From: an uncultured Candidatus Saccharibacteria bacterium
Lineage (GTDB): Bacteria > Patescibacteriota > Minisyncoccia > Phycocordibacterales > UBA9973
Assembly: GCA_964613525.1 (NCBI GenBank)
Contig: CAZTIN010000002.1
Coordinates: 1 to 32,844 of the forward strand
Direction: 5' to 3'
DNA: 32,844 bases
In this document: one piece after another, positions 12,117-31,966 of the stretch
How the letters are laid out: the number at the start of each line of letters is the position of its first letter
How positions within the stretch are numbered: the first letter of the stretch is position 1
Position numbers and translations under genes: made by a program
Notes under the pieces: generated by a model
Told to the model about the DNA's origin: nothing
Databases searched by the model: none
Seen by the model: only the letters and a program-made list of their open reading frames with translations

Positions 12117-14594
12117 ATGCCAAAAACACCAAAAAACCAAAACCCTGAAGAAGAAATCGTTCCTCAGACAGACCGCATCCAAAAACACGCTATTGTGTCT
12201 GAAATGCGTGAATCATACTTGGACTATGCAATGAGTGTTATCACTTCACGTGCTCTTCCTGATGTCCGTGATGGTCTTAAACCTGTGCACAGGCGTATTC
12301 TTTATGCGATGCATGAGATGGGTCTTACATCTGGATCAAGATTCCGTAAATCTGCAACAGTTGTGGGTGAAGTTTTAGGTAAATACCATCCTCATGGTGA
12401 TGCATCAGTTTATGATGCTATGGTTAACATGGCGCAAGATTTCTCTTACAGGTATCCATTAGTTACTGGTCAAGGTAACTTTGGCTCTATTGATGGTGAC
12501 GGAGCTGCTGCTATGCGTTATACCGAAGCAAGAATGTCCAAAGTCTCTTCCGTATTCTTGCAAGACCTGGAAAAAAATACTGTTAATTTCCGTCCAAACT
12601 ACGACCAAACAAAAAAAGAACCAGTAGTTTTGCCAGCTATGGTGCCTGGGTTACTACTAAACGGAACTTTGGGTATTGCTGTCGGTATGGCTACAAACAT
12701 TCCACCGCATAACCTAGGTGAAGTTATGGATGCGTGTATTCATTTTAATGATAATCCGGATTCAACCACAGAAGATCTAATGGAATTTATCCAAGGACCG
12801 GACTTTCCAACTGGTGCTGTTGCTTATAATAAAAAAGACATGCTCCATGCTTACCAAACAGGTCGCGGTGGTGTAACTGTACGCGGCGAAGCCGAAGTCA
12901 TAGAACAAAAAGGAGGACAATTCCAAATAATCGTAACTTCTTTACCGTACAGAGTAGTTAAAGCTAACTTTGTTGAATCTATTGCTGACCTAGTTCGCGA
13001 AAAGAAAATAGACGGTATCAAGGGTCTTCGTGATGAGTCTACTCGTGATATGCGCGTCGTTATTGACCTTAAAACCGGCGCTCATCCACAAAAGGTTTTG
13101 AATTATCTTTATAAACACACTCAATTAGAAAGTGTCTTCCACTACAACTTGGTGGCTCTTGTTGATGGTGTTCCACAAACACTGTCTCTTAAGACTTTCA
13201 TAGAAGAATTTATCAAACACCGTCGCGAAGTTATAGTCCGTCGTACTGAGTTTGATTTAGCAAAAGCCAAAGACCGCGAACACATTTTGCTCGGTCTTAA
13301 GAAGGCGCTGGATTTCATAGACGAAGTTATTAAGATAATTCGCGCTTCTAAAGACGGCGCTGCAGCAAAAGAAGCCCTAATAAAACGATTCAAATTTAGC
13401 GACCTGCAAGCTACCGCCATCCTGGAAATGAGACTCCAGAAACTAGCTGGACTTGAACGTAAGGCTGTAGAACTAGAACTGAAAGAAAAGCAAGAATTAA
13501 TTGCTGAACTTGAAAGTATTCTAAAAACTCCAAAGAAAGTTACTAAAATAATAGGTGATGAACTAAACCATATTAAGACTACATATAGTGATGACAGAAA
13601 GACAAAAATAGTAAAAGGTGGTCTTAAATCTATGAGCGACGAAGACCTAATCCCAGAGAAAGAATCTGTCTTGGTTTATACTGCTGGTGGTTATGTTAAA
13701 CGTACTGACCCAACAGAATACCGTAAACAAAATCGTGGCGGAATAGGTACTATTGATATCGAAACAAAAGAAGAAGATTTTGTAACAATGTTAGTCGATG
13801 CGAATACTCATGCTGATCTTTTATTCTTCACGAATCAGGGACGCGCTTACCAAATAAGAATGTTCGACATTCCAGAAGGTAAACGTGCCACAAAAGGTAA
13901 GTCAATTAATAATTTCCTTTCTTTAACAGGTGACGAAAAGGTTACTTCTATTTTACCTATCAGTAAAGGTGATAAATCTAAATATGAATCATTAATGCTA
14001 GTAACTAAACACGGTACAACTAAGAAAGTCGCTTATGAGTCATTCAAAGACGTGCGTCGTAGTGGTCTTATTGCGATTACTCTTGAAAAAGGTGATGAGC
14101 TTATATCAGTTATGGCTCTTGAAAAAGGTGACGATGTCTTGCTCGTAACCAAAGACGGTCAGTCTATTAGATTTACTGAATCTGATGTTCGTCAGATGGG
14201 CCGTGCCGCTGCAGGTGTTATCGGTATGAAGCTAAGCAAAGGTGATATTGTTATAGGTGTTAATGCTATTTCAAATAGTGCCGATACGAAAGATCTAACT
14301 ATACTAACAATCAGTGAAAAAGGTTTAGGTAAAAGAACAAAGCTTTCCGAATACAAAGTCCAGAAACGTGGAGGATCCGGAATTCTTACTGCTAAAGTTA
14401 CAGAAAAAACTGGTGAAATTATGTCAGCACGTATTGCAGGTAACGATGGTGAATTAATCGCTATTTCTAAGAAAGGCCAAACCATCAGGACTGACATAGG
14501 TTCTGTGCCAATACTCGGTAGGTCAACACAAGGCGTAACAATAATGAAGTTAAGAGCAGGTGATGCAATTGCGTCGCTGGCTGTACTAAGTTAG
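12117..14594 (+). CDS. gyrA: DNA gyrase subunit A
   Basis: [30 protein letters not shown], the catalytic Tyr context [10 protein letters not shown], and C-terminal beta-pinwheel repeats. Confidence 0.97.
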
Positions 14595-14596
14595 CT

Positions 14597-15106
14597 ATGA
14601 ATACATCTGTCGCAGATGTTATAAACGGACTACCTCTAAAGCAGAATTCTAAAATCCTAATAATCGGAGATTTACCTCTTCGGTATATAACTTTGTTTAC
14701 TGATAAAGTCGGTAACAATAATGTGACTCTGTTAAAGATTAAAAACGCAGAATCTAAAAAACACGATTTTAAAGAAATTTTCTATGACATTGATAATGGT
14801 AAAAAGCTACCTTTTCGCAGTGAGCTGTTCGATGTTTTGTTTGTGTTTCATACACTGCGCTATGTTATTTACAGAGAATCTCTATTAAAAGAATTTACTC
14901 GTATTTTAAAGCCAGGTGGTCTTAACGTTATCATTGAATCTAAAATTAATGCATTCAGTGCTAGTTCTCACCCTGATGCAAAAATAATTTTTGACGACAT
15001 GCTTGAATATCTAGACCGAGCAAACTTTCTTTTAGGTGAAAATTTTGACACTAATCAAGATGAATATGGTATTATAAGTATATGTCCTATTCGAGAATCA
15101 GAATAG
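14597..15106 (+). CDS. class I methyltransferase-fold protein with a degenerate SAM motif I
   Basis: LPF.SELFDVLFVFHTLRYV and LKPGG resemble Methyltransf_11, but motif I reads ILIIGDLPL with no GxGxG. It starts 2 nt after the gyrA stop. Confidence 0.5.
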   Translation: MNTSVADVINGLPLKQNSKILIIGDLPLRYITLFTDKVGNNNVTLLKIKNAESKKHDFKEIFYDIDNGKKLPFRSELFDVLFVFHTLRYVIYRESLLKEFTRILKPGGLNVIIESKINAFSASSHPDAKIIFDDMLEYLDRANFLLGENFDTNQDEYGIISICPIRESE

Positions 15107-15115
15107 CTAATTTGT

Positions 15116-16453
15116 ATGAATAAATTCCAAACAATTTTACTAATAGTTTTTGGTGTAGGTGCAATTTTTGCGGTTATGGTATTTGCCGGTTATATACCAA
15201 CACCAGCTAGTAAAACCAAAATCAAAGGCACAGGTACAGTAGTCATCTGGGGTACTCAAAATGAAGAAAGATTCGTATCTTATATGACAGACCTTGCCGA
15301 TGGTATTCAGGATTTTCGCATAGTTTATGTTCCGAAAGATGAATCAACTTATGAATCAGAACTAATAGAAGCTTTTGCTGCTGGTAAAGGTCCTGATATG
15401 TTCATGGTTACTAATGAAAATATGCTACGTTTTACTAACCAGATAGAACCAATAAGCTACGTTACTTTGCCTCAGAAGAATTTCATCAGTTCATACCCTA
15501 GCGCCTTCTCAGTATTCCTGACAGGTTCAGGTTCACTGGCTTATCCTTTGATGATTGACCCAATGGTGCTGTATTACAACAGGACATTACTTGCTAATGA
15601 TGGTATTGCTAATCCACCCAAATATTGGGATGAAGTACCGTTAATGGCTGAGAAACTAACCAAGCGTGACACTACTGGTGCGTTTCTGCAAAGCGCAATA
15701 GCTATGGGGCGATTTGAGAATATATCAAACGCTAAAGACATCATTGTACTGCTGCTAACTCAGGTAGGGAATAATATTGTAGGTATTAACAACGAAGGCT
15801 ACTATGTTTCAACTCTTGCGGAACATAGGACTTCTCTTGGTTTAACTTTGCCGGCGGTTATTAACTATTTCACAGATTTTGCTTCACCTGATTCTACTGT
15901 ATATTCTTGGAATAAAAGTTTGCCTGATGCAACCAGTTCATTCTTAACAGAAAGAGTTGCTCTTTATCCTGGCTTTGCTAGCGAATTATTTAACCTGCAG
16001 CAAAGAAATCCTAATTTAGCACTAGCTGTAACAGATATACCTCAGCCACGCGGATTTACTAATAAGAAAACCTATGCCAAAGTCACAGGTATTGCTCTTT
16101 CTAAATATAGTACAAACAAGCTAACGGCTCTTCTAACTATGCAAACTATTGGTAGTCCTTATCATGCAGCTAATATCGCAAAAGTTTTAGCACTGCCGTC
16201 ACCGTACAGTAGCGACTTGTTACAAAGCCCTGATCCTTCGCTGGCGTATCAAACAGTTCTTCAGTCAGCAGCACTGAGAGCCACATCTTTCCGTGACCCT
16301 GGAGCGTCTCAAACGATGGGTATTTTTAGAGAATTAACCCAAGCTATCTTGGCTGGTGGTGCTGATGCAGATGGAGCATATGATAGAGCCGATTCTGGAA
16401 TAACACTTCTCTTAACCAAGTTTAATCAGGCAGCAGTATCTCAAACAAATTAG
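15116..16453 (+). CDS. membrane-anchored extracellular solute-binding protein (SBP family 1-like)
   Basis: N-terminal TM anchor, then VVIWGT...AFAAGKGPDMFMV...YPLMIDPMVLYYNRTLL...PPKYWDEV, typical of MalE-type SBPs. Confidence 0.72.
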   Translation: MNKFQTILLIVFGVGAIFAVMVFAGYIPTPASKTKIKGTGTVVIWGTQNEERFVSYMTDLADGIQDFRIVYVPKDESTYESELIEAFAAGKGPDMFMVTNENMLRFTNQIEPISYVTLPQKNFISSYPSAFSVFLTGSGSLAYPLMIDPMVLYYNRTLLANDGIANPPKYWDEVPLMAEKLTKRDTTGAFLQSAIAMGRFENISNAKDIIVLLLTQVGNNIVGINNEGYYVSTLAEHRTSLGLTLPAVINYFTDFASPDSTVYSWNKSLPDATSSFLTERVALYPGFASELFNLQQRNPNLALAVTDIPQPRGFTNKKTYAKVTGIALSKYSTNKLTALLTMQTIGSPYHAANIAKVLALPSPYSSDLLQSPDPSLAYQTVLQSAALRATSFRDPGASQTMGIFRELTQAILAGGADADGAYDRADSGITLLLTKFNQAAVSQTN

Positions 16454-16454
16454 T

Positions 16455-18761
16455 ATGAAATTTAGGAAAATTTTTCTAACTTTAATAATTGCTTCTTTTG
16501 TTTATATTTTACCTAATTTTGCCAGTGCAGAGATTGTTTTACCTTGTTCACGCGGAACAGCACAAATGTGTGGCTTTAATGATGTTTTTACTCTAATCAA
16601 TAATTTGATAAAGTTTTTCCTCAGTTATGTACTACTACCTCTATCTATAATATTAGTAAGTTATGCTGGATGGCTATTTATGACATCTGGGGGCAATGAA
16701 AGTAAGCGCACTCAAGCTAAAGCCATATTTAAAAACTTGCTCATAGGTATAGCAATATTCCTTTTGGCTTGGTCTATAGTTTATTTTGTATTCAAGGCTT
16801 TTGGGGTAAAAGGTAGTAATGGTCTGTCTGATAAAACTGTCGACTGGAAAGTCGACGGTTCTTCTTTACCACAAATTAATACGGGTACTCAGAGCTCTGG
16901 CCAAAATAACAATAGCAGTAATAATTCCAGTAATCAGGTATTAACCAGCTATGCTGCTACTATTACTTACAATGCAGTAGTTCCTAGCAGTACTCGCGCT
17001 ACTGTAACAATAACTCCAAAAGCACCTTATGAAATGGCAATTCGTATGAAATGTATAGATAGGCTTAGTGGAGATACTGCTACTGGCGAAGCCAAGATAG
17101 CTTCGGGTAGTAGCGTGACAACTATTGTAATTGACCTACAAGAAGAGACAGAATATTCTTGCGCTCTTGAGAATATCGAAGGTCAAATTAAAATGAATGA
17201 TATAACAGATTCAGAAATAATGACCCCTAGGGTTTCTCCAGTAACGGGCGATTTTACTTTTTCTGGTGGTAGTTTCGACTCAGACGAAAATACTATAAAT
17301 ATTCGCTACCGTAATGCTGACAAGCTTTACTCTAGTTCTGGATTTCTTTCTTGTTTTGATTCTACTAATTCAAGAAATTTATTTAACATGTCTGGTATTT
17401 TACTAAATAGGGAAAAGGGTAGTGACTTGCGTTATGCTACATATAATCTACCTTCTAATTTTTCTAGTACTCTGGAAGATAATATTAATGTTAGTTGTAG
17501 TTTCTATACTTATACCCTGGTTAATAAAATAATAACTGAAACAGAAAATAAGTTTACAGGTACTATAAAATCAACTAAAAAAATCCAAAGTATTAAAACC
17601 AGATTCCTAGTAACAGAGAAGCAAATAGGTCAGGACAGCGTAACTATTATATTTAATGGGTCTATAAACATAAATCCTAATTTGTCTTTGGCTTGTTATT
17701 CGAATAATTCGAACCATGTTTTTAGAACACGCGCTACTTTTGACCCAACTACAAATTCCAGGCTTTCACAGGCAATGAATCCGTCTTTTAATAAAGATTC
17801 TATTTATGCACCAATTACGATACCGGTAGCATGGTTCGGCTATGGTCTTAGGCCAGGGTCAGTTTACTCTTGTAATTTAGAAGGAGAAACTCTTGAAAAA
17901 GTCTCTGGTTACGAAGATCAAGTAGTTACTAAACATAATCATTCGTTTAGTCTTAGTACTCCTTTAATTCCAGCACCTATTAAATTAGAATCAAAACTCG
18001 ATTACTATGTTTCCATTGGAGTACCAAGAATTGTTTATGTAAACTATCCATATGTAAAACCAGTAAATGTGCTATCAGGCGGGCCTTATTTATCAGAATC
18101 GCAGTTCAGGCAGCCTATACCAGATTCTATTTTTGTACCAGTTACAAATGGGCTTGTTGTAGATAATTCTCGTATGAACATGGTATGTACTTCTATTGTT
18201 GGTCCAGCAGCTGGGACAACCTATAGTACGCTAGTCTCAGTGTCTGAGACTCAGTCTGCTGATACTTTTGGAATTGCTCAGGTGTATGGAGCTAATAATA
18301 ATCTTGGCTCTGGATTCAGTATACCGATAGTCAGGACTCCGCGAGGTGGATTTATGCATTCGTCCGTATATGCTTGTATGCTGGGGTTTACAGTAGGCTC
18401 TGTGCCTCAGATTAGGTCATTTATGGCATCAGTCCCTATTAGTATCGATCCAACTGAAATTGGCCCTATAAACCTATCAGTCGAAAATATAAATGCTGAT
18501 AAAAGTTACGCAAACTTTACTATAGTTGCATCACCTCGTATCGAAAATAGTGTAAAATATACTTGTAGACATCCGTCTGGTAACTATACAGGCGAAGCAT
18601 ACTGGCCGCCGCAAGCTCTGGGTATAAGAATGCCTGTAGCCATTCCTGTTATGAGTAGCTTGCCAGGATTAAAGCCAGCCACAAATTATAGCTGCACATT
18701 AGAAGGTTCCACCTATCAGAAACAAATCGTAGAATATCAGTTTAATATACAAACACCTTAA
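16455..18761 (+). CDS. TrbC/VirB2-like pilin module (aa 1-118) fused to a large extracellular domain of Cys-pair modules
   Basis: Signal peptide (..NFASA/EI), a two-TM hairpin with loop SGGNESKRTQAK, an N/S-rich linker, then five modules each closed by a Cys pair. See findings. Confidence 0.6.
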   Translation: MKFRKIFLTLIIASFVYILPNFASAEIVLPCSRGTAQMCGFNDVFTLINNLIKFFLSYVLLPLSIILVSYAGWLFMTSGGNESKRTQAKAIFKNLLIGIAIFLLAWSIVYFVFKAFGVKGSNGLSDKTVDWKVDGSSLPQINTGTQSSGQNNNSSNNSSNQVLTSYAATITYNAVVPSSTRATVTITPKAPYEMAIRMKCIDRLSGDTATGEAKIASGSSVTTIVIDLQEETEYSCALENIEGQIKMNDITDSEIMTPRVSPVTGDFTFSGGSFDSDENTINIRYRNADKLYSSSGFLSCFDSTNSRNLFNMSGILLNREKGSDLRYATYNLPSNFSSTLEDNINVSCSFYTYTLVNKIITETENKFTGTIKSTKKIQSIKTRFLVTEKQIGQDSVTIIFNGSININPNLSLACYSNNSNHVFRTRATFDPTTNSRLSQAMNPSFNKDSIYAPITIPVAWFGYGLRPGSVYSCNLEGETLEKVSGYEDQVVTKHNHSFSLSTPLIPAPIKLESKLDYYVSIGVPRIVYVNYPYVKPVNVLSGGPYLSESQFRQPIPDSIFVPVTNGLVVDNSRMNMVCTSIVGPAAGTTYSTLVSVSETQSADTFGIAQVYGANNNLGSGFSIPIVRTPRGGFMHSSVYACMLGFTVGSVPQIRSFMASVPISIDPTEIGPINLSVENINADKSYANFTIVASPRIENSVKYTCRHPSGNYTGEAYWPPQALGIRMPVAIPVMSSLPGLKPATNYSCTLEGSTYQKQIVEYQFNIQTP
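16941..18758 (+). repeat. five divergent protein-level modules (about 85-135 aa), each with one Cys pair and three ending in a (P)xxxYSCxLEG-like motif
   Basis: Cys pairs at aa 200/236, 300/348, 414/473, 578/641 and 704/747. The recurring motifs are ETEYSCALEN, PGSVYSCNLEG and PATNYSCTLEG. The DNA itself is not repeated. Confidence 0.55.
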
Positions 18762-18762
18762 T

Positions 18763-19323
18763 ATGAAAAGATTTTACATGTACATATTGTTTGCATTGAT
18801 CTTACCTACATTAGGTTATGCTCAGTTTACTGGGTTTAATGATGAGACTGGACTAAGCGTGCCAATGTATTCAGTGGATAATACATTCATAGGTAATAAC
18901 GGTGATGTTATTTCAAACGATGCAAGCAAATATACTAATGATGCAAATATTACAACCAGTGCAGAAGTTAACATAAACGTTGCAGGAAGTAACAGAATTT
19001 GCAGTATAGGACGTAAGACATTCGCTTCATATGTTGACTATGTAGGCTGTATTGTGCGAGTTTCTATACTACCATTTATATTTACTCTTGCTCTCCTGGC
19101 ATTTATTTGGGGAGTAACAGTAATGATTAGGCATCCGGATAACCAGGAGTCTCAAAAAGAAGGAAGGATCTTTATACTGTGGGGGATTATTGGATTCTTC
19201 GTTATAACATCAGTTTATGCGCTAGTGGCAATAATTAGGAGAACAGTTGGTTTCGGGTCTAATTTTAAAGATGATGCCACACCTTATGTACAATTAAAAG
19301 AAAAAGTGCAAAAATTAAAATAG
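18763..19323 (+). CDS. TrbC/VirB2-like pilin-family protein with an N-terminal Asn-rich extension
   Basis: Signal peptide (..LGYA/QF), a Cys pair CSIGRKTFASYVDYVGC, and a two-TM hairpin with loop HPDNQESQKEGR, ending in IIRRTVGFG. Confidence 0.55.
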   Translation: MKRFYMYILFALILPTLGYAQFTGFNDETGLSVPMYSVDNTFIGNNGDVISNDASKYTNDANITTSAEVNINVAGSNRICSIGRKTFASYVDYVGCIVRVSILPFIFTLALLAFIWGVTVMIRHPDNQESQKEGRIFILWGIIGFFVITSVYALVAIIRRTVGFGSNFKDDATPYVQLKEKVQKLK

Positions 19324-19324
19324 T

Positions 19325-19711
19325 ATGAAGAAAATAATTTTAAGTATGATCCTGGCATTCTCAGTTATACTGCCTACCTCTGTAGCTTTGGCTGACGACA
19401 ATGCTTTTGAATTAAATGTAGGCATAGAGAATCCTCTTGGTAGCGGTAAAGACAATATAAAGGACATAATAGCTTCTATAATGAAAGTCATAGTAGACAT
19501 TGCTATACCAATAGTTGTGGTAATGGTAATATATTCAGGATTCCTGCTTGTTATGGCTCAGGGTAACCCTGATAAATTAAAAGAAGCCAAAAAGACTATT
19601 ACCTGGACTCTGGTTGGGGCAACCATACTACTAGGCGCCCAGCTTATATCAACAGTACTTGTTGAAACAGTCTCGAATGTTTCAAAAGACGCAGTCTCGT
19701 CTACTAAATAA
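19325..19711 (+). CDS. TrbC/VirB2-like pilin-family protein
   Basis: Signal peptide (..SVALA/DD), an amphipathic helix, TM helix, loop AQGNPDKLKEAKK, then a second TM helix. Confidence 0.6.
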   Translation: MKKIILSMILAFSVILPTSVALADDNAFELNVGIENPLGSGKDNIKDIIASIMKVIVDIAIPIVVVMVIYSGFLLVMAQGNPDKLKEAKKTITWTLVGATILLGAQLISTVLVETVSNVSKDAVSSTK

Positions 19712-19724
19712 GTTATTCACAACA

Positions 19725-19753
19725 GGGCCCAATTACATGCAGTAATTGGGCCC
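19725..19753 (+). other. GC-rich 12-bp hairpin without a U-tract inside the pilin cluster
   Basis: GGGCCCAATTAC (19725-19736) pairs perfectly with GTAATTGGGCCC (19742-19753) around a 5-nt loop. It is followed by AATGTG rather than a T-run. Confidence 0.6.
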
Positions 19754-19757
19754 AATG

Positions 19758-19766
19758 TGTTATAAT
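19758..19766 (+). promoter_or_regulatory. extended -10 promoter TGtTATAAT
   Basis: TGT plus TATAAT (19761-19766). The gap to ATG 19802 is 35 nt. Confidence 0.55.
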
Positions 19767-19801
19767 ATATACATATTAGTATAAATTAATTGTTAATTAT
19801 T

Positions 19802-20200
19802 ATGCGTAAATTTATTGCTCCGGCTCTTGGTTTCTTTTTACCTGTTTTGGCAATGGCACAAAATATAAACGTTGGACCAGCTTATACTGGTAACCAAAAT
19901 GTGTTCACACTGCTTGCTACAGGTCAGAGTCTAATGAACCTATTAATCCGTGTTCTTGTGGGTTTTGCGGTTCTTATGATTATCGTAGGTGTTGTTCAGT
20001 TTATAATAGCTGGTTCAAAAGGTGATTCTGCTGCTTCAGGTAAAGCTAAAAGTACAATACTATACGGTGTATTAGGTCTTTTCGTTATTACAACTATCTG
20101 GGGACTTGTAGGTATCGTGCGTCGTACACTTGGTACTGGTACACCTGGTTCATCTGATGTTGTACTTCCTTGTGTTCCTGGTCAAGACCAGAACTGTTAG
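19802..20200 (+). CDS. TrbC/VirB2-like pilin-family protein (start at ATG 19802, MRKF...)
   Basis: Signal peptide (..VLAMA/QN), a two-TM hairpin with loop AGSKGDSAASGKAK, the motif IVRRTLGTG, and a C-terminal Cys pair CVPGQDQNC. Confidence 0.6.
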   Translation: MRKFIAPALGFFLPVLAMAQNINVGPAYTGNQNVFTLLATGQSLMNLLIRVLVGFAVLMIIVGVVQFIIAGSKGDSAASGKAKSTILYGVLGLFVITTIWGLVGIVRRTLGTGTPGSSDVVLPCVPGQDQNC

Positions 20201-20213
20201 TATCTAATGTCTT

Positions 20214-20462
20214 ATGACTACTAATAGTATTATTGGTTCATTAATTCAACATATCGTTCAGCCTGGGATAAAGCTAATGTTTATCGTTGCTATCCTAGTA
20301 TTTGTCTGGGGTGTAGTAGAAATGATAATGAATGCCGGTAATCAAACCGCCAGAGAAAAGGGAACAAGACATATGATGTGGGGGCTAATAGGACTATTTG
20401 TAATGTTTGCGGTATACGGAATATTAAACTTTCTAGTGGACACGCTGCGAGGTGTAGCATAA
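20214..20462 (+). CDS. TrbC/VirB2-like pilin-family protein lacking a signal peptide
   Basis: 82 aa. Amphipathic N-terminus, TM helix, loop NAGNQTAREKGTR, then a second TM helix. Confidence 0.5.
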   Translation: MTTNSIIGSLIQHIVQPGIKLMFIVAILVFVWGVVEMIMNAGNQTAREKGTRHMMWGLIGLFVMFAVYGILNFLVDTLRGVA

Positions 20463-20463
20463 G

Positions 20464-20503
20464 ACAAACATAAAAGCCGCTTATAAGCGGCTTTTATGTT
20501 TGT
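20464..20503. terminator. bidirectional terminator, 17-bp perfect stem
   Basis: ACAAACATAAAAGCCGC (20464-20480) pairs with GCGGCTTTTATGTTTGT (20487-20503) around the loop TTATAA. It lies between the last pilin gene (+) and tRNA-Lys (-). Confidence 0.8.
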
Positions 20504-20507
20504 TATG

Positions 20508-20580
20508 TGCCCCGTGAGGGGATCGAACCCCCGACCATCTCCTTAAGAGGGAGCTGCTCTACCAGCTGAGCTAACAGGGC
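20508..20580 (-). tRNA. tRNA-Lys (anticodon CTT)
   Basis: Hand-folded 73-nt cloverleaf: acceptor GCCCTGT/ACGGGGC, anticodon loop CTCTTAA, T-loop TTCGATC. No encoded CCA. Confidence 0.85.
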
Positions 20581-20757
20581 GGAATTAGCACTTTATTATG
20601 ACTCTGTACTTCTGCATTGATCTGTATATCTATCAAAACAGCTAACAGGGTATGTAAAATCTTTGTTTAAAAAATTACTAAATCAGTTTACACCATAAAT
20701 CTGCAAAAATCAACAAACTATTGAATTTTATTTGAAAATAGTATAAAGTATATCCAT

Positions 20758-20839
20758 GCCGAGGTGGCGAAATTGGTAGACGCACTTGCCTTAGGAGCAA
20801 GCGGGGTGACCCATGGAGGTTCAAGTCCTCTCCTCGGCA
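20758..20839 (+). tRNA. tRNA-Leu (anticodon TAG)
   Basis: 82 nt. Acceptor GCCGAGG/CCTCGGC, anticodon stem-loop CTTGC CTTAGGA GCAAG, long variable arm, T-loop TTCAAGT. Confidence 0.85.
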
Positions 20840-20852
20840 CTAGTACTTTTGC

Positions 20853-20938
20853 GCCCGAGTGATGGAATGGTAGACATAGGGGACTTAAAATCCCCAGATC
20901 GTAAGGTCGTGTGGGTTCGAGTCCCACCTCGGGCACCA
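20853..20938 (+). tRNA. tRNA-Leu (anticodon TAA), the only tRNA here with an encoded CCA
   Basis: Acceptor GCCCGAG/CTCGGGC, anticodon stem-loop GGGGA CTTAAAA TCCCC, long variable arm, T-loop TTCGAGT, then ACCA. Confidence 0.85.
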
Positions 20939-20951
20939 GTCTCGAGAAAGC

Positions 20952-21023
20952 GACCCAGTCGCCAAGTGGTAAGGCCAGGGTCTGCAAAACCCTTATACGG
21001 CGGTTCGATTCCGCCCTGGGTCT
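20952..21023 (+). tRNA. tRNA-Cys (anticodon GCA)
   Basis: 72 nt. Acceptor GACCCAG/CTGGGTC, discriminator T, anticodon stem-loop AGGGT CTGCAAA ACCCT, T-loop TTCGATT. Confidence 0.85.
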
Positions 21024-21034
21024 CAATATGTAAA

Positions 21035-21066
21035 GAAAAAGCCAGGATTTATTCCTGGTTTTTTTC
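21035..21066. terminator. bidirectional terminator shared by the tRNA array (+) and rbfA (-)
   Basis: CCAGGA (21042-21047) pairs with TCCTGG (21054-21059). An A-run lies on the left and a T7 run on the right. The rbfA stop codon lies in the loop. Confidence 0.7.
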
Positions 21067-21387
21067 TTGCATTTCTATTTCTGTAATTCTTCTTGCTAAC
21101 TTTTCACCTTTGTCTATTGCTACATCTACAAAAGGTATGCGAGCGATAGGTAGGTTCTTCATTATTTCTTTACGAATTTCGTTGCGCTTTCTTTTTAGGA
21201 AGTCTAGCGCTACTTCTTCTTCCTTTTCTGGAATTACGGTAAAGAATATAGTTGCTTTGTCTCCGCGTTCGTTAGTATCAACAGTGGTAACTGTTATTAT
21301 AGATTTACCATTGGATTCACGGCTAATGTATTTTGACACAATTTCCTTAACGCGTGATTTTATTTGGGTGTTTCTGAATTCTGACAT
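21049..21387 (-). CDS. rbfA: ribosome-binding factor A
   Basis: 112 aa with an RbfA-like pattern (R..R....I.......I....), placed 2 nt downstream of infB in the conserved infB-rbfA order. Confidence 0.85.
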   Translation of the reverse strand: MSEFRNTQIKSRVKEIVSKYISRESNGKSIITVTTVDTNERGDKATIFFTVIPEKEEEVALDFLKRKRNEIRKEIMKNLPIARIPFVDVAIDKGEKLARRITEIEMQEKNQE

Positions 21388-21389
21388 AT

Positions 21390-22886
21390 TTACTGTATTT
21401 CTTTAACTATAGCTTCTAGTGTATCACCAGTCGCTAGTGTAATCTTGGTTTCTATTTGGGCGCCACATTCGTCACCCTCGAATACTTCTTTAGTTTTACT
21501 TTTGTTATGCTGGAGTTCAGTAACCTTACCAATAGCAATTTCATTATCACGTCTTAGTACGCGCACCGTAGAGCCTAATTTAATAGAACCCGATTGTACT
21601 TTACCACCAATGACTTGTTTTTCTTTTGTTTGATTGAATAGCTTTAGGATTTTTAGTGAGCCTACTTCTACTTGAACTTCTTTACGAGGACGTCTTTTTT
21701 CTAGTTCTTCTTCTAGCCATTCGGTTAGTTTGTAAATAATATCAAAAGTCATTACAGTTACTGACATTTGGTCGCGAACATCTTCTGCTTTGCGGTCAAT
21801 GTTGACATGGAACCCAACTATAATAGTATCTTTGTCAGCTGTGGCCATTTTAATATCGTTTTCGGATACATTACCTACGGCTGATTTCACAACATGAAAA
21901 CCATTCTCTTCGTTATTTAGCTTAGCAACTTCTTTTTCTATAGCTTCTATTGAACCTACAGTATCAGCTTTTATCATCAGTGGAATAGAGAATTCGCTTG
22001 TTTTTTCAGATATTCTGTTTTTAATTTCTTTTGATTGTTTATTAGCAGCAACTGCTTTTTCAGCTTCTTTCTTTGTATCAAATACTTCAAAATATGAACC
22101 CACCGGAGGAACAGTGTCAAAACCAACTACATTGATAGGGGACGAACAGTAGCTTTCTGTAATAGTCTTACCCATGAAATTTTCCATTATACGGGTTGAT
22201 ACCATAGACTCGCCAGCTACAATAAAAGAGCCTTTTTTAAGCGTACCTTCTTTTAGTATTAGTGTTGCTGTAATGCCACGCTTGGTATCAAGATGTGATT
22301 CAAGCACGATACCTTCAGCTCTTTTAGATAGGTCAGCGCGCATATCATTGAACTCAGCCACGAACAATATTAGGTCTAGTAGATTGTTTATTCCTTCTCC
22401 TGTTACAGCTGAAATCGCCACATGTGGAATATCTCCACCCATGCCTTCCAGGTATATACCGTGCTCTAATAGGGTATTCTTTGTCCTATCGACATTTGCT
22501 CCGGGTTTGTCTATTTTGTTTATAGCTACTATGTAGGGTATACCTGATTCTTTTATAGCTTCTAATGCTTCTAGTGTTTGAGCTTTTACTCCATCTTCTG
22601 CAGACACTACTAATATTGCTATATCGGCAGCACTAGCCCCGCGTACACGCATAGACGTAAAAGCCGCATGTCCTGGAGTATCCAGGAATGTTATTTTCTT
22701 TAGGTCTCCATTTTCTGTTTCGTGGAGTACTTCGTATGCTGCAATGTGTTGAGTAATACCACCAGATTCTCCAGCAACTACGTTTGATTTTCTTATGTAG
22801 TCTAAAAGTGTTGATTTACCATGGTCCACATGTCCCATAACAGAAACAACCGGTGGACGTGCAATTATTTTCGTCTTTTCTCCCAT
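21390..22886 (-). CDS. infB: translation initiation factor IF-2, short form lacking the long N-terminal region
   Basis: The G domain starts at aa 10 (RPPVVSVMGHVDHGKSTLLD, DTPGH, NKID). The IF-2 domains II, C1 and C2 follow. Confidence 0.95.
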   Translation of the reverse strand: MGEKTKIIARPPVVSVMGHVDHGKSTLLDYIRKSNVVAGESGGITQHIAAYEVLHETENGDLKKITFLDTPGHAAFTSMRVRGASAADIAILVVSAEDGVKAQTLEALEAIKESGIPYIVAINKIDKPGANVDRTKNTLLEHGIYLEGMGGDIPHVAISAVTGEGINNLLDLILFVAEFNDMRADLSKRAEGIVLESHLDTKRGITATLILKEGTLKKGSFIVAGESMVSTRIMENFMGKTITESYCSSPINVVGFDTVPPVGSYFEVFDTKKEAEKAVAANKQSKEIKNRISEKTSEFSIPLMIKADTVGSIEAIEKEVAKLNNEENGFHVVKSAVGNVSENDIKMATADKDTIIVGFHVNIDRKAEDVRDQMSVTVMTFDIIYKLTEWLEEELEKRRPRKEVQVEVGSLKILKLFNQTKEKQVIGGKVQSGSIKLGSTVRVLRRDNEIAIGKVTELQHNKSKTKEVFEGDECGAQIETKITLATGDTLEAIVKEIQ

Positions 22887-30439: not shown

Positions 30440-31966
30440 TTAGCCTACACTTTTGATTTGTCTTACATCAGCTCCTAGGTCGCTAAGTCTTTCTATTAGA
30501 CCTTCGTACCCACGGTTAATAGCATAGACATTACGCAGTATTGATTTACCTTCGGCTGCTAGCATGGCAATAAGTATAATAGTTGCTGGGCGCAGTGCTG
30601 GTGGGCAGACTATCTGCGCTCCACGTAAATCTGTTCCTCCGTCTACGTATACACGGTGTGGGTCGGCAAGCATTACTTTTGCTCCTAGGCGGTTTAGTTC
30701 TGTAAAATATATTGCTCGGTTTTCCCATGTCCAGTCGTGTACTAGTGTGGTACCGTCCGCTACAGCAGCTATCGGCACAAAGAAAGGCAAGTTGTCATTA
30801 TTTATACCAGGGAATGGTAATGCATGTATTTTATCAGGTAGAGCTTTAAGCTTACTTTCTTTAATTGTTATATCAACTAGTTCAACATGACCATTTTTAC
30901 CTTTGTATGATTTACTAACAGTAAATTTTAATCCCATTTTTTCTAGTTTTAGTAGTTCAAGTCTTAGAAATTCAATAGGGCATCGTTTAATAGTAATATT
31001 ACTATTTGTTACGATTCCAGCAGCTAGGAAAAACATTGTTTCTATCGGGTCTTCACTGTTGTACCATTCTAGCTCTTCGTCTATTTCTTCTATACCACTA
31101 ACTTCTAGGGTAGTCGAACCGATCCCATTTATCTTTACACCTAGTCTTTCTAAGAAGAAGCACACATCTTGTACTTGGTAGTTAGGCGGAGCAAAACGAA
31201 TTATGGTTTTGCCAGGAGTCAGAGCCGCAGTCATTAACGCGTTTACTGCTGCCATATCGGACGCTTCGTATAGTACTATGTCGGCAGGTTTTATATTAGT
31301 ATTTTTAACTAGGTAATGCTTTGCTTCTGATTTTATTTTTATTCCAAATTTTTCCAGTGCAAACCTATGAGCTGAAATAGTTCTTTCACCCATTTTACAC
31401 CCACCTGGGTTAGGTAGGCGGAATTCTTTTATTCTATGTGCTAGTGGTGGAATCAAATACAAATTAACACGAATTCTACCAGCAATCGCTTCGTCTATAT
31501 TATCTATATCAAATTCATCCGGAGGAGTTATTTTAAGACTATGTTCTTCTACCCAATTAGTTTTGATACCAATACTTTCAAAAACTTCTATAAAACGAAA
31601 AACTTCTTCTATTCTTGGGACGCCATGAATAGTAGTTGCTGATTTATTTAAAAGTGATGCCGCCATCAGAGCCAAAGCTCCATTTTTAGAATAATGAGTT
31701 GTTACTTCGCCGGATAATTTCTTGCCGCCGACTATTTCAAAATCGTCAACTCTTGGAGCAAGAGTAATAAGCCTCTCGCCAAGAGTGTCGCCAATTCTTT
31801 CTAATTCTTTAGTGGTAAAATTTTGGTTACCTTTTTCCATTCTGGCTACTGCTGACTGAGATGTATCCAGCATTTTGGCAAAAGATGACTGGGTTAGGCC
31901 TTCACGTTCGCGGATAGTGCGTATAAGATAGCCTATATAATTTTGTAATGACTTTTTCTTTCCCAT
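30440..31966 (-). CDS. murA: UDP-N-acetylglucosamine 1-carboxyvinyltransferase with an N-terminal XRE-type HTH domain (fusion)
   Basis: aa 8-70 (IGYLIRTIREREGLTQSSFAKMLDTSQSAVARMEKGNQNFTTKELERIGDTLG) is a classic HTH_3 pattern. From about aa 73 the MurA pattern begins: FEIVGGKKLSGEVT..YSKNGALALMAASLL and the catalytic Cys loop PGGCKMGERTISAH. Confidence 0.88.
   Translation of the reverse strand: MGKKKSLQNYIGYLIRTIREREGLTQSSFAKMLDTSQSAVARMEKGNQNFTTKELERIGDTLGERLITLAPRVDDFEIVGGKKLSGEVTTHYSKNGALALMAASLLNKSATTIHGVPRIEEVFRFIEVFESIGIKTNWVEEHSLKITPPDEFDIDNIDEAIAGRIRVNLYLIPPLAHRIKEFRLPNPGGCKMGERTISAHRFALEKFGIKIKSEAKHYLVKNTNIKPADIVLYEASDMAAVNALMTAALTPGKTIIRFAPPNYQVQDVCFFLERLGVKINGIGSTTLEVSGIEEIDEELEWYNSEDPIETMFFLAAGIVTNSNITIKRCPIEFLRLELLKLEKMGLKFTVSKSYKGKNGHVELVDITIKESKLKALPDKIHALPFPGINNDNLPFFVPIAAVADGTTLVHDWTWENRAIYFTELNRLGAKVMLADPHRVYVDGGTDLRGAQIVCPPALRPATIILIAMLAAEGKSILRNVYAINRGYEGLIERLSDLGADVRQIKSVG

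Follow-up and report, generated by a model that had tools for sequence, protein, structure and literature searches.

Which function is encoded by a solute-binding protein (SBP) gene that has no transporter partners but is directly followed by five genes for pilin-like membrane proteins? This gene group lies within the window, the 32,844-nt stretch of DNA from an uncultured member of the Patescibacteriota that was analyzed here as a whole, and the sequence-only reading had described it as a surface-filament-like cluster with pilin paralogues of strongly differing decorations. All six ORFs on the + strand exist as described: the SBP gene (15116–16453), P1 (16455–18761, 768 aa), P2 (18763–19323, 186 aa), P3 (19325–19711, 128 aa), P4 (19802–20200, starting with ATG, with an alternative in-frame TTG at 19790) and P5 (20214–20462, 82 aa). 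The three 1-nt spacers between SBP and P1, P1 and P2, and P2 and P3 are real, with the junction sequences TAGtATG, TAAtATG and TAGtATG, and P5 is convergent with a tRNA-Lys gene on the – strand (20507–20580). When all other ORFs of appreciable size were scanned with Pfam, only housekeeping genes were found, namely GyrA, IF2, RbfA, ClpB, HisRS, Def, Fmt, LepB, Pth, S1, Alr, MiaA, a MurA-like protein, a partial MurB and others. Among all sizeable ORFs of the window, Pfam detected neither VirB4, VirB6, VirD4 or another component of a type IV secretion system (T4SS) nor a type IV pilus gene, and no permease or ATPase partner for the SBP.

The SBP and the five pilin-like proteins

The SBP matched the Pfam models SBP_bac_8 (60 bits) and SBP_bac_1 (54 bits), and the best full-length PDB match of its profile was 4r9f 'MBP1' (E 4e-19). 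Its description as an orphan SBP was borne out, as it is a genuine member of family 1 encoded without permease or ATPase nearby. It has 125 homologues with 80–30% identity. Residues 1–20 were conserved no less than the remainder of the protein, and only 5/82 sequences contained a Cys within the first 40 residues; the SBP itself lacks a lipobox. It is an extracellular, oligosaccharide-type family-1 SBP with a conserved hydrophobic N-terminal anchor.

Profile HMM searches also supported the proposed affiliation of P1–P5 with a VirB2/TrbC-like pilin family that is rich in patescibacterial members. With Pfam PF18895 (T4SS_pilin, curated cut-off 26.6 bits), P1, P3, P4 and P5 scored 36.5, 37.4, 31.2 and 40.1 bits, respectively, whereas P2 as the sole one of the five stayed below the cut-off (25.4 bits); the P2 orthologue in the related locus L068 reached 31.3 bits. 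P3 alone additionally passed the TrbC/VirB2 model PF04956 (28.9 bits, cut-off 27.9 bits), and all five proteins weakly matched NF045849, a Mycoplasma ICE pilin-like family (18–34 bits, each below the curated cut-off of 40). Kyte-Doolittle hydropathy indicated two strong hydrophobic segments approximately 20 residues apart in each protein, in agreement with helical hairpins in the AF2 models of P1 (H40–77/H82–115) and P3 (H45–77/H82–126, pLDDT ~90), as expected from the proposed two-TM topology. Signal peptides had been suggested for four of the five proteins; a signal-like N-terminal segment was clear in P1, P3 and P4 and absent in P5, while the N-terminus of P2, MKRFYMYILFALILPTLGYA, has the appearance of a signal peptide but stayed under the hydropathy threshold used. 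The five loop sequences listed previously were all found in the translations.

The hairpin module is combined with different add-ons. In P1, a signal peptide (residues ~1–25) and a Cys31/Cys39 pair precede the hairpin (40–115), which is followed by an Asn/Ser-rich linker (~116–165) and a C-terminal part of about 600 aa predicted to consist of tandem disulfide-bonded beta-sandwich domains. The AF2 model, which does not include residues 508–671, places these domains at 167–260, 268–371, 384–501 and 674–766, with block pLDDT values mostly between 60 and 87. Foldseek matched the model to tandem FN3 domains (3t1w, 7.8e-9) and to bacterial adhesin extender repeats (6xi3, 1.7e-8), an internal repeat signal of up to z = 8.4 was detected, and 12/12 Cys were invariant across five orthologues. 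The C-terminal region of P1 hence models as a series of tandem FN3/Ig-like domains resembling those of adhesins, as had been suspected; its orthologues were confined to close relatives (5 matches, 61–41% identity). P2 contains a signal peptide-like segment, an Asn-rich extracellular N-terminal region, the hairpin module and a C-terminal IIRRTVG motif, and P4 a signal peptide, the hairpin, an IVRRTLG motif and a C-terminal Cys pair, consistent with the (I/V)(I/V)RRT(L/V)G motif and the other features reported for both. P3 consists of signal peptide and hairpin module, and the Foldseek matches of its model included no solved pilin (best E 2.2). P5 represents the minimal hairpin module without signal peptide.

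A conserved chromosomal module next to gyrA

Relatives of the SBP were present in at least 592 stretches among GTDB species representatives. When the five window proteins were used to build a module HMM, it detected 402 ORFs across 86 related loci, every one on the strand of the SBP gene and all but one directly 3' of it. The array was present in all of the best 80 SBP loci with downstream sequence, usually as five genes, and also beside SBPs of 31–38% identity that were reached by other routes; the gap between the SBP gene and the first pilin gene was mostly –4 to +6 nt. Comparison of neighborhoods thus showed that the SBP-pilin array is conserved in every related locus with enough sequence, comprising 81 species-level genomes and further contigs, whereas the downstream context varies freely.

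The unit begins before position 15116, where its start had been placed. In 75/78 loci, a methyltransferase homologue ends at most 200 nt upstream of the SBP start, often with an overlap of 4–8 nt, and in the window this first gene of the module lies at 14597–15106 on the + strand (Pfam Methyltransf_11 and Ubie_methyltran). The encoded protein is small and resembles class-I SAM methyltransferases. The consensus of motif I in the family is VADlGAGtGfY, with GxGxG in 77/82 copies, but the window copy reads ILIIGDLPLRY at this SAM-binding motif. With the motif lost, a role of the window copy is doubtful. Still further upstream, gyrA (12117–14594, + strand; Pfam DNA_topoisoIV and DNA_gyraseA_C in relatives) serves as anchor of the module and belongs to its context, not to its functional parts. 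Of 70 loci with at least 3 kb of upstream sequence, 68 had gyrA in the same orientation no more than 4.5 kb ahead of the SBP gene. The locus is therefore one instance of a module that is conserved on the chromosomes of Paceibacteria-type Patescibacteria and situated directly 3' of gyrA.

Array proteins clustered according to gene position, and each window protein fell into a different class: P1 into C1, P2 into C3, P3 into C2, P4 into C4 (at a bit-score threshold of 65) and P5 into C5. Among the 72 loci with four or more array genes, each class was retained in 62–72, with C3 in 72, C2 in 70 and C5 in all 72, where it closed the cassette in 70 cases. The canonical order C1-C2-C3-C4-C5 was found in 34 loci; the window has C1-C3-C2-C4-C5. 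P1–P5 thus belong to five ancient orthologous classes, which keep their positions and occur as one of each per genome, and are not recent variable copies. The same-class identity of module cores between species was 44–52%, with SBPs of the same species averaging 44%, while paralogues inside the window array were ~19–42% identical. What does vary is the extracellular add-ons: extensions of more than 200 aa occurred in C1, C2 or C5, depending on the lineage, but were very rare in C3 and C4.

A single long spacer occurs in the array, between P3 and P4. It contains a perfect 12-bp hairpin, GGGCCCAATTAC-ATGCA-GTAATTGGGCCC (19725–19753, + strand), which is not followed by a canonical T-run and is possibly an attenuator or a stabilizer of transcript ends. 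Downstream of it lies an extended –10 box, TGtTATAAT (19758–19766, + strand). Across 72 related cassettes, the spacer preceding the penultimate gene contained TATAAT in 55 and TGnTAnAAT in 43 cases, compared to at most 7/72 with TGnTAnAAT at any other junction, and the median gap at the C3>C4 junction was 119 nt versus 9–20 nt at the other main junctions. This conservation marks out an internal promoter of the extended –10 type in front of P4 and P5. A perfect 40-nt palindrome between the P5 stop codon and the tRNA-Lys gene (20464–20503; half-sites ACAAACATAAAAGCCGCTTA and TAAGCGGCTTTTATGTTTGT) probably acts as a bidirectional terminator at the end of the unit.

Relation to type IV secretion and to known systems

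A VirB4-like ORF (at least 400 aa with a Walker A motif) was present within 10 kb of the cassette in 0 of 86 loci, leaving the cassette without genetic linkage to the presumed assembly machine. The reported lack of secretion machinery is correct for the window but does not extend to whole genomes, as VirB4 is listed elsewhere in the genome for 6/8 cassette-bearing relatives (Table S1 of PMC12102498); for two drafts with the cassette, no VirB4 is listed, although these genomes may simply be incomplete. With 2,474 virB4 genes in 3,035 genomes of the phylum (PMC12102498), this proportion approximates the background rate and co-occurrence is uninformative. In RAAC4_OD1_1, VirB6, VirB3, TrsD and VirB4 are encoded on the scaffold of the cassette, and this T4SS core, ~240 genes off, adjoins a PF18895 gene of its own, indicating that the cassette proteins may not be its pilins.

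The assumption that the function of the family is not experimentally established was overtaken by work on Southlakia epibionticum, in which epibiotic growth requires a pilin array located within the T4SS locus (Wang et al., 2023, PMC10633639; see also PMC12857230), and by a survey that catalogued 441 VirB2-like arrays and noted that many genomes have their pilin genes at a distance from virB4 (Quinonero-Coronel et al., 2025, PMC12102498). A patescibacterial pilin array as such is therefore not novel. Pilin genes were near virB4 in only 1,135/1,948 assemblies, and T4SSs of Gram-positive-type envelopes are generally without pili (PMC12102498). In a Paceibacteria enrichment, T4SS pilins were among the most highly expressed unknown genes (PMC10936435). 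The window array shares with the surveyed arrays the PF18895/PF04956 family, the tandem same-strand arrangement, the chromosomal location with no relaxase nearby, the possibly large distance to virB4 and the low identity among members (~27% compared to 25% reported; PMC12102498). It differs from the six-pilin array of Southlakia, which is placed inside the T4SS cluster (PMC10633639), a location never observed for the window array and the 86 related loci. Further differences from published arrays are the co-translated SBP and the methyltransferase in front, the gyrA anchor, the five positional classes and the internal promoter, none of which we found mentioned in published work on these arrays. 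The five cassette genes of RAAC4_OD1_1 are missing from Table S3 of PMC12102498 despite scores above the Pfam cut-off.

Conjugative pilins of the TrbC/VirB2/TraA type from Gram-negative T4SSs (PF04956) resemble the window proteins in that they are small and have a signal peptide and two hydrophobic helices connected by a short charged loop, but only P3 passes the TrbC model. Genes for pilus biogenesis in Gram-negative T4SSs, such as VirB5 and VirB1, are not found near the window array, which belongs to a cell with a monoderm envelope, and instead of one major pilin there are five distinct subunits, some with large extracellular fusions, for which polymerization is a prediction. The Mycoplasma ICE family Mbov_0395 (NF045849) and PrgF of pCF10-type MPF-FATA systems likewise comprise small two-TM pilin-like proteins, and patescibacterial T4SSs are of MPF-FATA ancestry, with frequent PrgF-profile matches in the phylum (PMC12102498). 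However, these proteins are encoded as single copies inside conjugative elements, in contrast to the five-class chromosomal set with an SBP.

SBPs without a permease of their own can be functionally tied to T4SS-related systems. PrgZ of pCF10 is a pheromone-binding, OppA-like orphan SBP encoded together with T4SS genes, and ChvE of Agrobacterium is a sugar-binding SBP that signals to VirA. Both share the solute-binding fold with the window SBP but belong to other SBP families (family 5 for PrgZ), act ahead of the machinery, in regulation or capture, and lack translational coupling to pilin genes.

Proposed function and alternatives

P1–P5 most likely act together as the different subunits of a heteromeric surface structure that is related to T4SSs and whose adhesin add-ons are specific to lineages. 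After membrane entry via Sec and processing by signal peptidase I, both termini would face outward and the short Lys/Arg-containing loop the cytoplasm. With this predicted topology, all lineage-specific add-ons (the linker and FN3/Ig-like domains of P1, the Asn-rich domain of P2 and the Cys loop of P4) would lie outside the cell. C1–C5 may co-assemble into one short pilus or conduit of the VirB2 type that is built or used by an MPF-FATA-like T4SS core (VirB4, TrsD, VirB3 and VirB6) with genes at another site of the genome. Having a separate promoter and no add-ons, C4 and C5 would make up the bulk of the structure, and C1–C3 would be lower-copy subunits bearing host-contact domains, while the co-translated SBP in the same membrane patch might recognize glycans or capture substrates. 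We give this overall explanation, including the distant T4SS and the SBP partner, a probability of roughly 0.5. Its parts differ in strength: the pilin family identity and the conserved module are close to certain and heteromeric co-assembly of the five classes is fairly probable, but dependence on a distant T4SS together with a filament form falls slightly short of even odds, and the role of the SBP is conjecture that we would sooner doubt than accept. To our knowledge, a filament has never been seen for the PF18895-type pilin family.

Alternatively, P1–P5, with two TM helices each and ten in total, could join the anchored SBP in a self-contained, T4SS-independent hetero-oligomer that acts as uptake channel, receptor or signaling platform and in which the VirB2-like fold would serve to build a membrane complex instead of a filament. 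The consistent separation from VirB4 in 86 loci, the strict retention of one member of each class across deep divergence and the tight coupling of SBP and first pilin gene everywhere speak for such a complex, as do the separate pilin gene at the T4SS locus of RAAC4_OD1_1 and the two drafts without listed VirB4. The well-conserved hydrophobic N-terminus of the SBP, lacking a lipobox, additionally suggests a retained helix with specific contacts. However, the module contains no ATPase or other energizing component, membership in PF18895 points to pilins, long adhesin-like domains attached through a flexible linker are more in keeping with surface display than with transport, and the separate C4–C5 promoter suggests unequal stoichiometry. 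We also know of no SBP-dependent transporter with two-TM subunits among the ABC, TRAP and TTT systems, and consider this explanation rather unlikely, with about one chance in four.

Two other explanations appear improbable. Interchangeable, fast-evolving VirB2 paralogues, any one of which suffices, could permit antigenic variation or host-range switching, as was previously proposed for patescibacterial arrays, Bartonella and Anaplasma. The low within-array identity, similar to the 25% array average (PMC12102498), the strong differences of add-ons by lineage, their shifts between classes and the restriction of P1 orthologues to close relatives are in accordance with this idea. For the module cores, it is largely refuted by the positional retention of the five orthologous classes and by core identities that match or exceed the SBP average and indicate conservation instead of diversification; silent extra copies or recombination repeats were not seen in the window either. 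Equally improbable is that the SBP works with a CUT1 sugar ABC importer whose genes lie at another locus and that its adjacency to pilin-like genes has no functional meaning. Orphan SBP genes do occur in bacteria, the window SBP shows the complete fold signature of family 1 and, among solved structures, its nearest relatives are oligosaccharide binders, but the near-zero spacing to pilin genes, kept at all examined loci even where SBP identity falls to 31%, goes far beyond what synteny drift would leave when the downstream context is free to change, and the window contains no permease or ATPase gene.

The heteromeric T4SS-related structure remains our preferred explanation. While pilin arrays in Patescibacteria have already been published, we found no published description of the module of methyltransferase, SBP and five pilins, and this fixed set of genes, shared by many related species, is the new part.

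Pilin-like genes of the window and their products

Seven tightly packed plus-strand genes occupy positions 14597–20503 of the window: a methyltransferase-like gene (14597–15106, 169 aa), the gene for a family-1 solute-binding protein (SBP; 15116–16453, 445 aa) and five genes for the pilin-like proteins P1 (16455–18761, 768 aa), P2 (18763–19323, 186 aa), P3 (19325–19711, 128 aa), P4 (19802–20200, or from a TTG at 19790; 132 aa) and P5 (20214–20462, 82 aa). As claimed in the sequence-only reading, stop codon and ATG are separated by 1 nt at the SBP/P1, P1/P2 and P2/P3 junctions, and none of these three junctions has a Shine-Dalgarno-like sequence. The same reading had assigned the five proteins to TrbC/VirB2-like pilins. 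In profile searches, the Pfam family T4SS_pilin (PF18895, gathering score 26.6 bits) matched all five, with 36.5, 25.4, 37.4, 31.2 and 40.1 bits for P1 to P5, so that P1, P3, P4 and P5 passed the cut-off and P2 stayed just under it. P2 can nevertheless not be dismissed as a non-member, because it groups firmly with class C3 of the orthologous pilin classes, whose representative in the related locus of RAAC4_OD1_1 (L068) scored 31.3 bits. The TrbC/VirB2 profile (PF04956, 27.9 bits) was passed by P3 alone (28.9 bits) and had no match at E ≤ 1 in P1, P2, P4 or P5; the orthologues from L068 reached 20–21 bits. Matches to NCBIfam were all sub-threshold and pointed to the 'pilin-like conjugal transfer protein' family of Mycoplasma ICEs (NF045849, Mbov_0395; 18–33.6 bits for P1–P5, cut-off 40 bits). 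VirB2 arrays of Patescibacteria have been defined as 2–11 divergent pilin genes in tandem or with one gene between them (PMC12102498), and the window, with five same-strand genes and pairwise local identities of 19–42%, fits this definition.

Hydropathy analysis bore out the proposed two-TM topology: each of P1–P5 has two strongly hydrophobic stretches spaced by about 20 residues. An N-terminal signal-like segment stands out in P1, P3 and P4, is less pronounced in P2 and is missing from P5. The interhelical loops, the RRT(L/V)G motif, the Asn-rich N-terminus of P2 and the terminal Cys pair of P4 that had been pointed out earlier are all present in the translations. AF2 modelled helical hairpins in P1 (residues 40–77 and 82–115) and P3 (45–77 and 82–126). 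The P3 model is a confident two-helix hairpin and no more, and when it was compared to the PDB with Foldseek, the best match had an E of 2.2 and none of the matches was a pilin, a two-helix hairpin being too simple for such a test. In the P1 model, obtained from a five-sequence alignment (mean pLDDT 58.6), the hairpin at residues 40–115 is followed by a disordered Asn/Ser-rich linker and by beta-sandwich domains at 167–260, 268–371, 384–501 and 674–766 (block pLDDT mostly 60–87), while residues 508–671 are unmodelled. This extension is adhesin-like: Foldseek matched the model to tandem fibronectin type III fragments (7.8e-9) and to the extender repeats of a bacterial large adhesion protein (1.7e-8); a phmmer search of P1 against the PDB returned nothing meaningful. 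All twelve Cys of P1 are invariant among five orthologues, and the spacings of the Cys pairs suggest one disulfide per domain. Given a cleaved signal peptide and the Lys/Arg-containing loop, both termini of the pilin-like proteins would face outward, and every extension of the pilin module would therefore be extracellular, which fits the conserved disulfides.

A Pfam scan of all sizeable ORFs identified the other window genes as housekeeping genes, encoding GyrA, IF2, RbfA, ClpB, HisRS, Def, Fmt, LepB, Pth, S1, Alr, MiaA, a MurA-like protein, a partial MurB and tRNAs, and found zero T4SS or type IV pilus components, in line with the absence of secretion machinery claimed before. Together with the family matches, these housekeeping-only surroundings confirm the original observation. 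The G+C content ranges from about 31 to 42% in 1-kb windows, and an exact-sequence look-up of P1 retrieved one 3.8-kb Logan contig and nothing else. Directly 3' of the pilin genes lies a cluster of four tRNA genes (20507–21024) for Lys on the minus strand and for Leu, Leu and Cys on the plus strand; the ORFs 20718–21026 (minus strand) and 20813–21406 (plus strand) overlap these tRNAs and rbfA and are almost certainly spurious. The MurA-like protein (30440–31966, minus strand) combines an EPSP_synthase fold (residues 80–494) with an N-terminal XRE-type helix-turn-helix (residues 13–65), an unusual fusion for a cell-wall enzyme.

A cassette with five pilin classes next to gyrA

Conservation of the SBP-pilin neighbourhood, which had been proposed as a check, was found throughout the relatives examined. 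Scanning of GTDB species representatives with an SBP alignment yielded at least 592 relatives, of which the best 80 loci were analysed. Loci reached through SBP homologues of 71, 63, 38, 32 and 31% identity have the same layout, with gyrA upstream and 4–6 PF18895 genes immediately 3' of the SBP gene, and so does a locus reached through a distant relative of P3. An HMM built from the five pilin modules of the window detected 402 ORFs in the related loci, every one on the SBP strand and all but one directly 3' of the SBP gene; the only loci lacking such matches are those in which the contig ends right there. The modal count is five pilin genes per locus (52 loci), and most gaps between the SBP gene and the first pilin gene measure −4 to +6 nt. 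Of the 70 loci with enough sequence, 68 have gyrA just upstream, and the downstream context varies.

In 75 of 78 loci, the SBP start is no more than 200 nt away from the end of a methyltransferase homologue, and the two genes often overlap. The family has a normal SAM-binding motif I (consensus VADlGAGtGfY), with GxGxG in 77 of 82 copies; the window protein reads ILIIGDLPLRY at this position. The motif is also lost in three further loci (L003, L007 and L009) and kept in L002 and L008, and the window protein may be an inactivated enzyme that was retained for another reason. In another lineage, a three-gene PF18895 array adjoins lepA on a 640-kb contig (L089, 1940–3086), with no SBP gene in the 1.9 kb between the contig start and the array and no VirB4 nearby, indicating that SBP-less arrays in housekeeping contexts also exist.

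Clustering of 381 modules gave five groups that track gene position, and each window protein falls into a separate group (C1, P1; C2, P3; C3, P2; C4, P4; C5, P5). Each class is present in 62–72 of 72 cassettes, usually in the order C1-C2-C3-C4-C5 (34 loci), with C1-C3-C2-C4-C5 in the window and its close relatives. Within a class, module identity across species is 44–52%, so the modules are as conserved as the SBP (44%). Extensions of more than 200 aa occur on C1, C2 or C5 depending on the lineage, and almost never on C3 or C4. Since the classes keep their positions and are more similar across species than the 19–42% identity inside the window array, these comparisons argue for five non-redundant subunits carrying variable outer domains and not for a recently amplified, freely varying repertoire; recent tandem duplication and antigenic variation were rejected on account of the five position-keeping orthologous classes. 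In many relatives, the third gene encodes a 'double pilin' of 190–285 aa with two modules, of classes C4 and C3, in one protein (L013, 12144–12950; L020, 8530–9387; L027, 7075–7836; and about 20 others). Such a tandem-fused protein with four TM helices would make two classes obligatory neighbours.

Probable promoter, leader and terminator signals

The sole long spacer of the window array (19712–19789) contains a perfect 12-bp hairpin (19725–19753) and an extended −10 box, TGtTATAAT (19758–19766). Across 72 cassettes, the long gap precedes the penultimate gene, and at the C3>C4 junction it has a median of 119 nt, compared to 9–20 nt for the remaining main junctions. Within the gap ahead of the penultimate gene, TATAAT is present in 55 and TGnTAnAAT in 43 of the 72 cassettes, whereas TGnTAnAAT was found at most 7 times at any other junction. 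A promoter of their own is therefore probable for C4 and C5. A sigma-70 consensus scan of the whole region was not enriched over shuffled sequences (29 found, 32.8 expected), so that the call of an internal promoter rests on cross-species conservation. A perfect 40-nt palindrome (20464–20503) closes the unit ahead of the convergent tRNA-Lys gene.

In 37 of the 72 leaders of the penultimate gene (L010–L086; for example L010, 12542–12673, and L012, 12731–12861) we observed a GGTCG motif. Its frequent forms are ATTATTAGGTCGC and the loop of a small hairpin, for example CCTACGGTCGGTGGG. Other junctions have the motif at most 3 times in 72, with a chance expectation of about 0.01 per gap, and it is not present in the clade of the window. 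In an Rfam scan that covered the window and five related loci, tRNAs were the only matches, and no family covers the leader before P4 or the GGTCG motif of the relatives. This motif may be an operator or an element of a leader RNA. In the Nomurabacteria genome RIFCSPHIGHO2_02_FULL_33_12 (L003, 14208–14848) and in L004, a nucleotidyltransferase/HepT-like toxin-antitoxin pair is inserted mid-cassette. The insert of L003 lies in the internal-promoter gap, with the promoter-like sequence duplicated and one copy on each side.

Relation to a T4SS and possible function

Arrays of VirB2-like genes without secretion machinery nearby are of a known kind. In a survey for which 3,035 genomes of Patescibacteria were searched with profiles that included PF18895 and PF04956, pilin-like genes were found in 1,948 VirB4-positive assemblies, near virB4 in 1,135 only, and 441 arrays of 2–11 pilin genes had an average identity of 25% (Quinonero-Coronel et al., 2025, PMC12102498). 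The survey cites the pilin array of Southlakia epibionticum, which lies in the T4SS locus and is essential (Wang et al., 2023, PMC10633639), a point also highlighted by a 2025 review (PMC12857230). In a Paceibacteria enrichment, T4SS pilins ranked with the most strongly expressed of the genes whose function is unknown (PMC10936435). The function of the Patescibacteria T4SS with its unusual pilins was described as completely unknown, although it is essential in the one tested species (PMC11665869). As type IV pili, the 'pilin' clusters of PMC9763046 are irrelevant here. The sequence-only reading was correct in finding and classifying the array, and its headline had already been published, while the methyltransferase-SBP-five-class module next to gyrA is, as far as literature searches show, undescribed; these searches also found no link between an SBP or substrate-binding protein and VirB2 or PF18895 in CPR.

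Whereas TrbC/VirB2 pilins of conjugation systems are encoded with VirB4 and its partners, the pilin-like proteins of the window and the related cassettes are not: no VirB4-like ORF (at least 400 aa, with Walker A) lies within 10 kb of the cassette in 86 loci. VirB4 is listed for 6 of 8 matched cassette-bearing genomes, the other two being drafts of about 550 kb (PMC12102498, Table S1); this rate is similar to the phylum background and hence not discriminating, and we counted it neither way. In the single-scaffold genome RAAC4_OD1_1, VirB6, VirB3, TrsD, VirB4 and one PF18895 gene are found at CDS 531–537 (PMC12102498, Table S3), so that the T4SS core is about 240 genes away from the cassette, which we estimate from coordinates to lie near CDS 295–300. 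Table S3 gives CDS 537 as the only VirB2, plus a 'FATA_PrgF' at CDS 287, and omits the five cassette genes (L068, 11301–13276), whose products all score 31–41 bits on PF18895, above the cut-off. The published numbers of pilin genes and arrays in Patescibacteria may thus be too low where Paceibacteria are concerned.

The SBP matches SBP_bac_1 (54 bits) and SBP_bac_8 (60 bits), and the profile of its homologues aligned near end-to-end with the mannooligosaccharide-binding protein 4r9f (E 4e-19), followed by GacH, MalE and similar sugar binders. It has 125 homologues at 80–30% identity, compared to four for P1. The profile match is shared with SBPs of family-1 (CUT1) ABC importers, but permease or ATPase neighbours and the lipoprotein anchor are not: Pfam scans detected no partner permease or ABC ATPase in the window, nor did the Pfam-annotated gene lists of nine related loci contain one. 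A lipoprotein anchor is usual for SBPs of monoderm bacteria. The N-terminal 40 residues of the window SBP contain no Cys, those of its homologues do in 5 of 82 cases, and a conserved hydrophobic segment stands in place of the anchor.

We propose that C1–C5 co-assemble into one T4SS-related surface structure, with C4 and C5 as bulk subunits and C1–C3 as decorated subunits. A distant MPF-FATA-like core would build or use this structure, and the SBP might be its membrane-anchored partner that recognises glycans or captures a substrate. The main rival is a T4SS-independent membrane complex of the SBP and ten helices, which is supported by the complete absence of VirB4 from the neighbourhood of the cassettes and by the fact that the T4SS locus of RAAC4 has a pilin gene of its own. 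Less weight can be given to a variable pilin repertoire: the earlier idea of variable surface modules holds for the extracellular extensions and fits nothing else, as the module cores form five position-keeping classes. Coincidental adjacency of the SBP gene is likewise a weak explanation, hard to reconcile with its universal tight coupling to the array.

Beyond the proposed T4SS-related structure, the module could be imagined as a self-contained organelle found across the Paceibacteria, in which heteropentameric layers with one subunit of each class stack into a host-tapping uptake tube and the SBP, as its receptor, captures host-derived glycans or metabolites. It would then be an uptake device instead of a secretion pilus, with or without a distant T4SS ATPase. 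We consider this picture as a whole improbable. Conjugative pili consist of five-fold layers, as seen in the structures of the F- and T-pilus, and a heteropentameric layer of five classes would echo this arrangement.

A central open question is by what means Patescibacteria supply their needs from host cells. Paceibacteria, a large class, keep a constant complement of five different pilin-like proteins tied to a sugar-binding-type protein, at a core chromosomal position next to gyrA and probably with its own internal promoter. The locus is chiefly useful for sharp hypotheses. In place of a vague 'variable pilin array', it offers a defined target of several subunits with concrete, testable predictions: a fixed subunit composition, a division into bulk and decorated subunits, and a ligand-binding partner.
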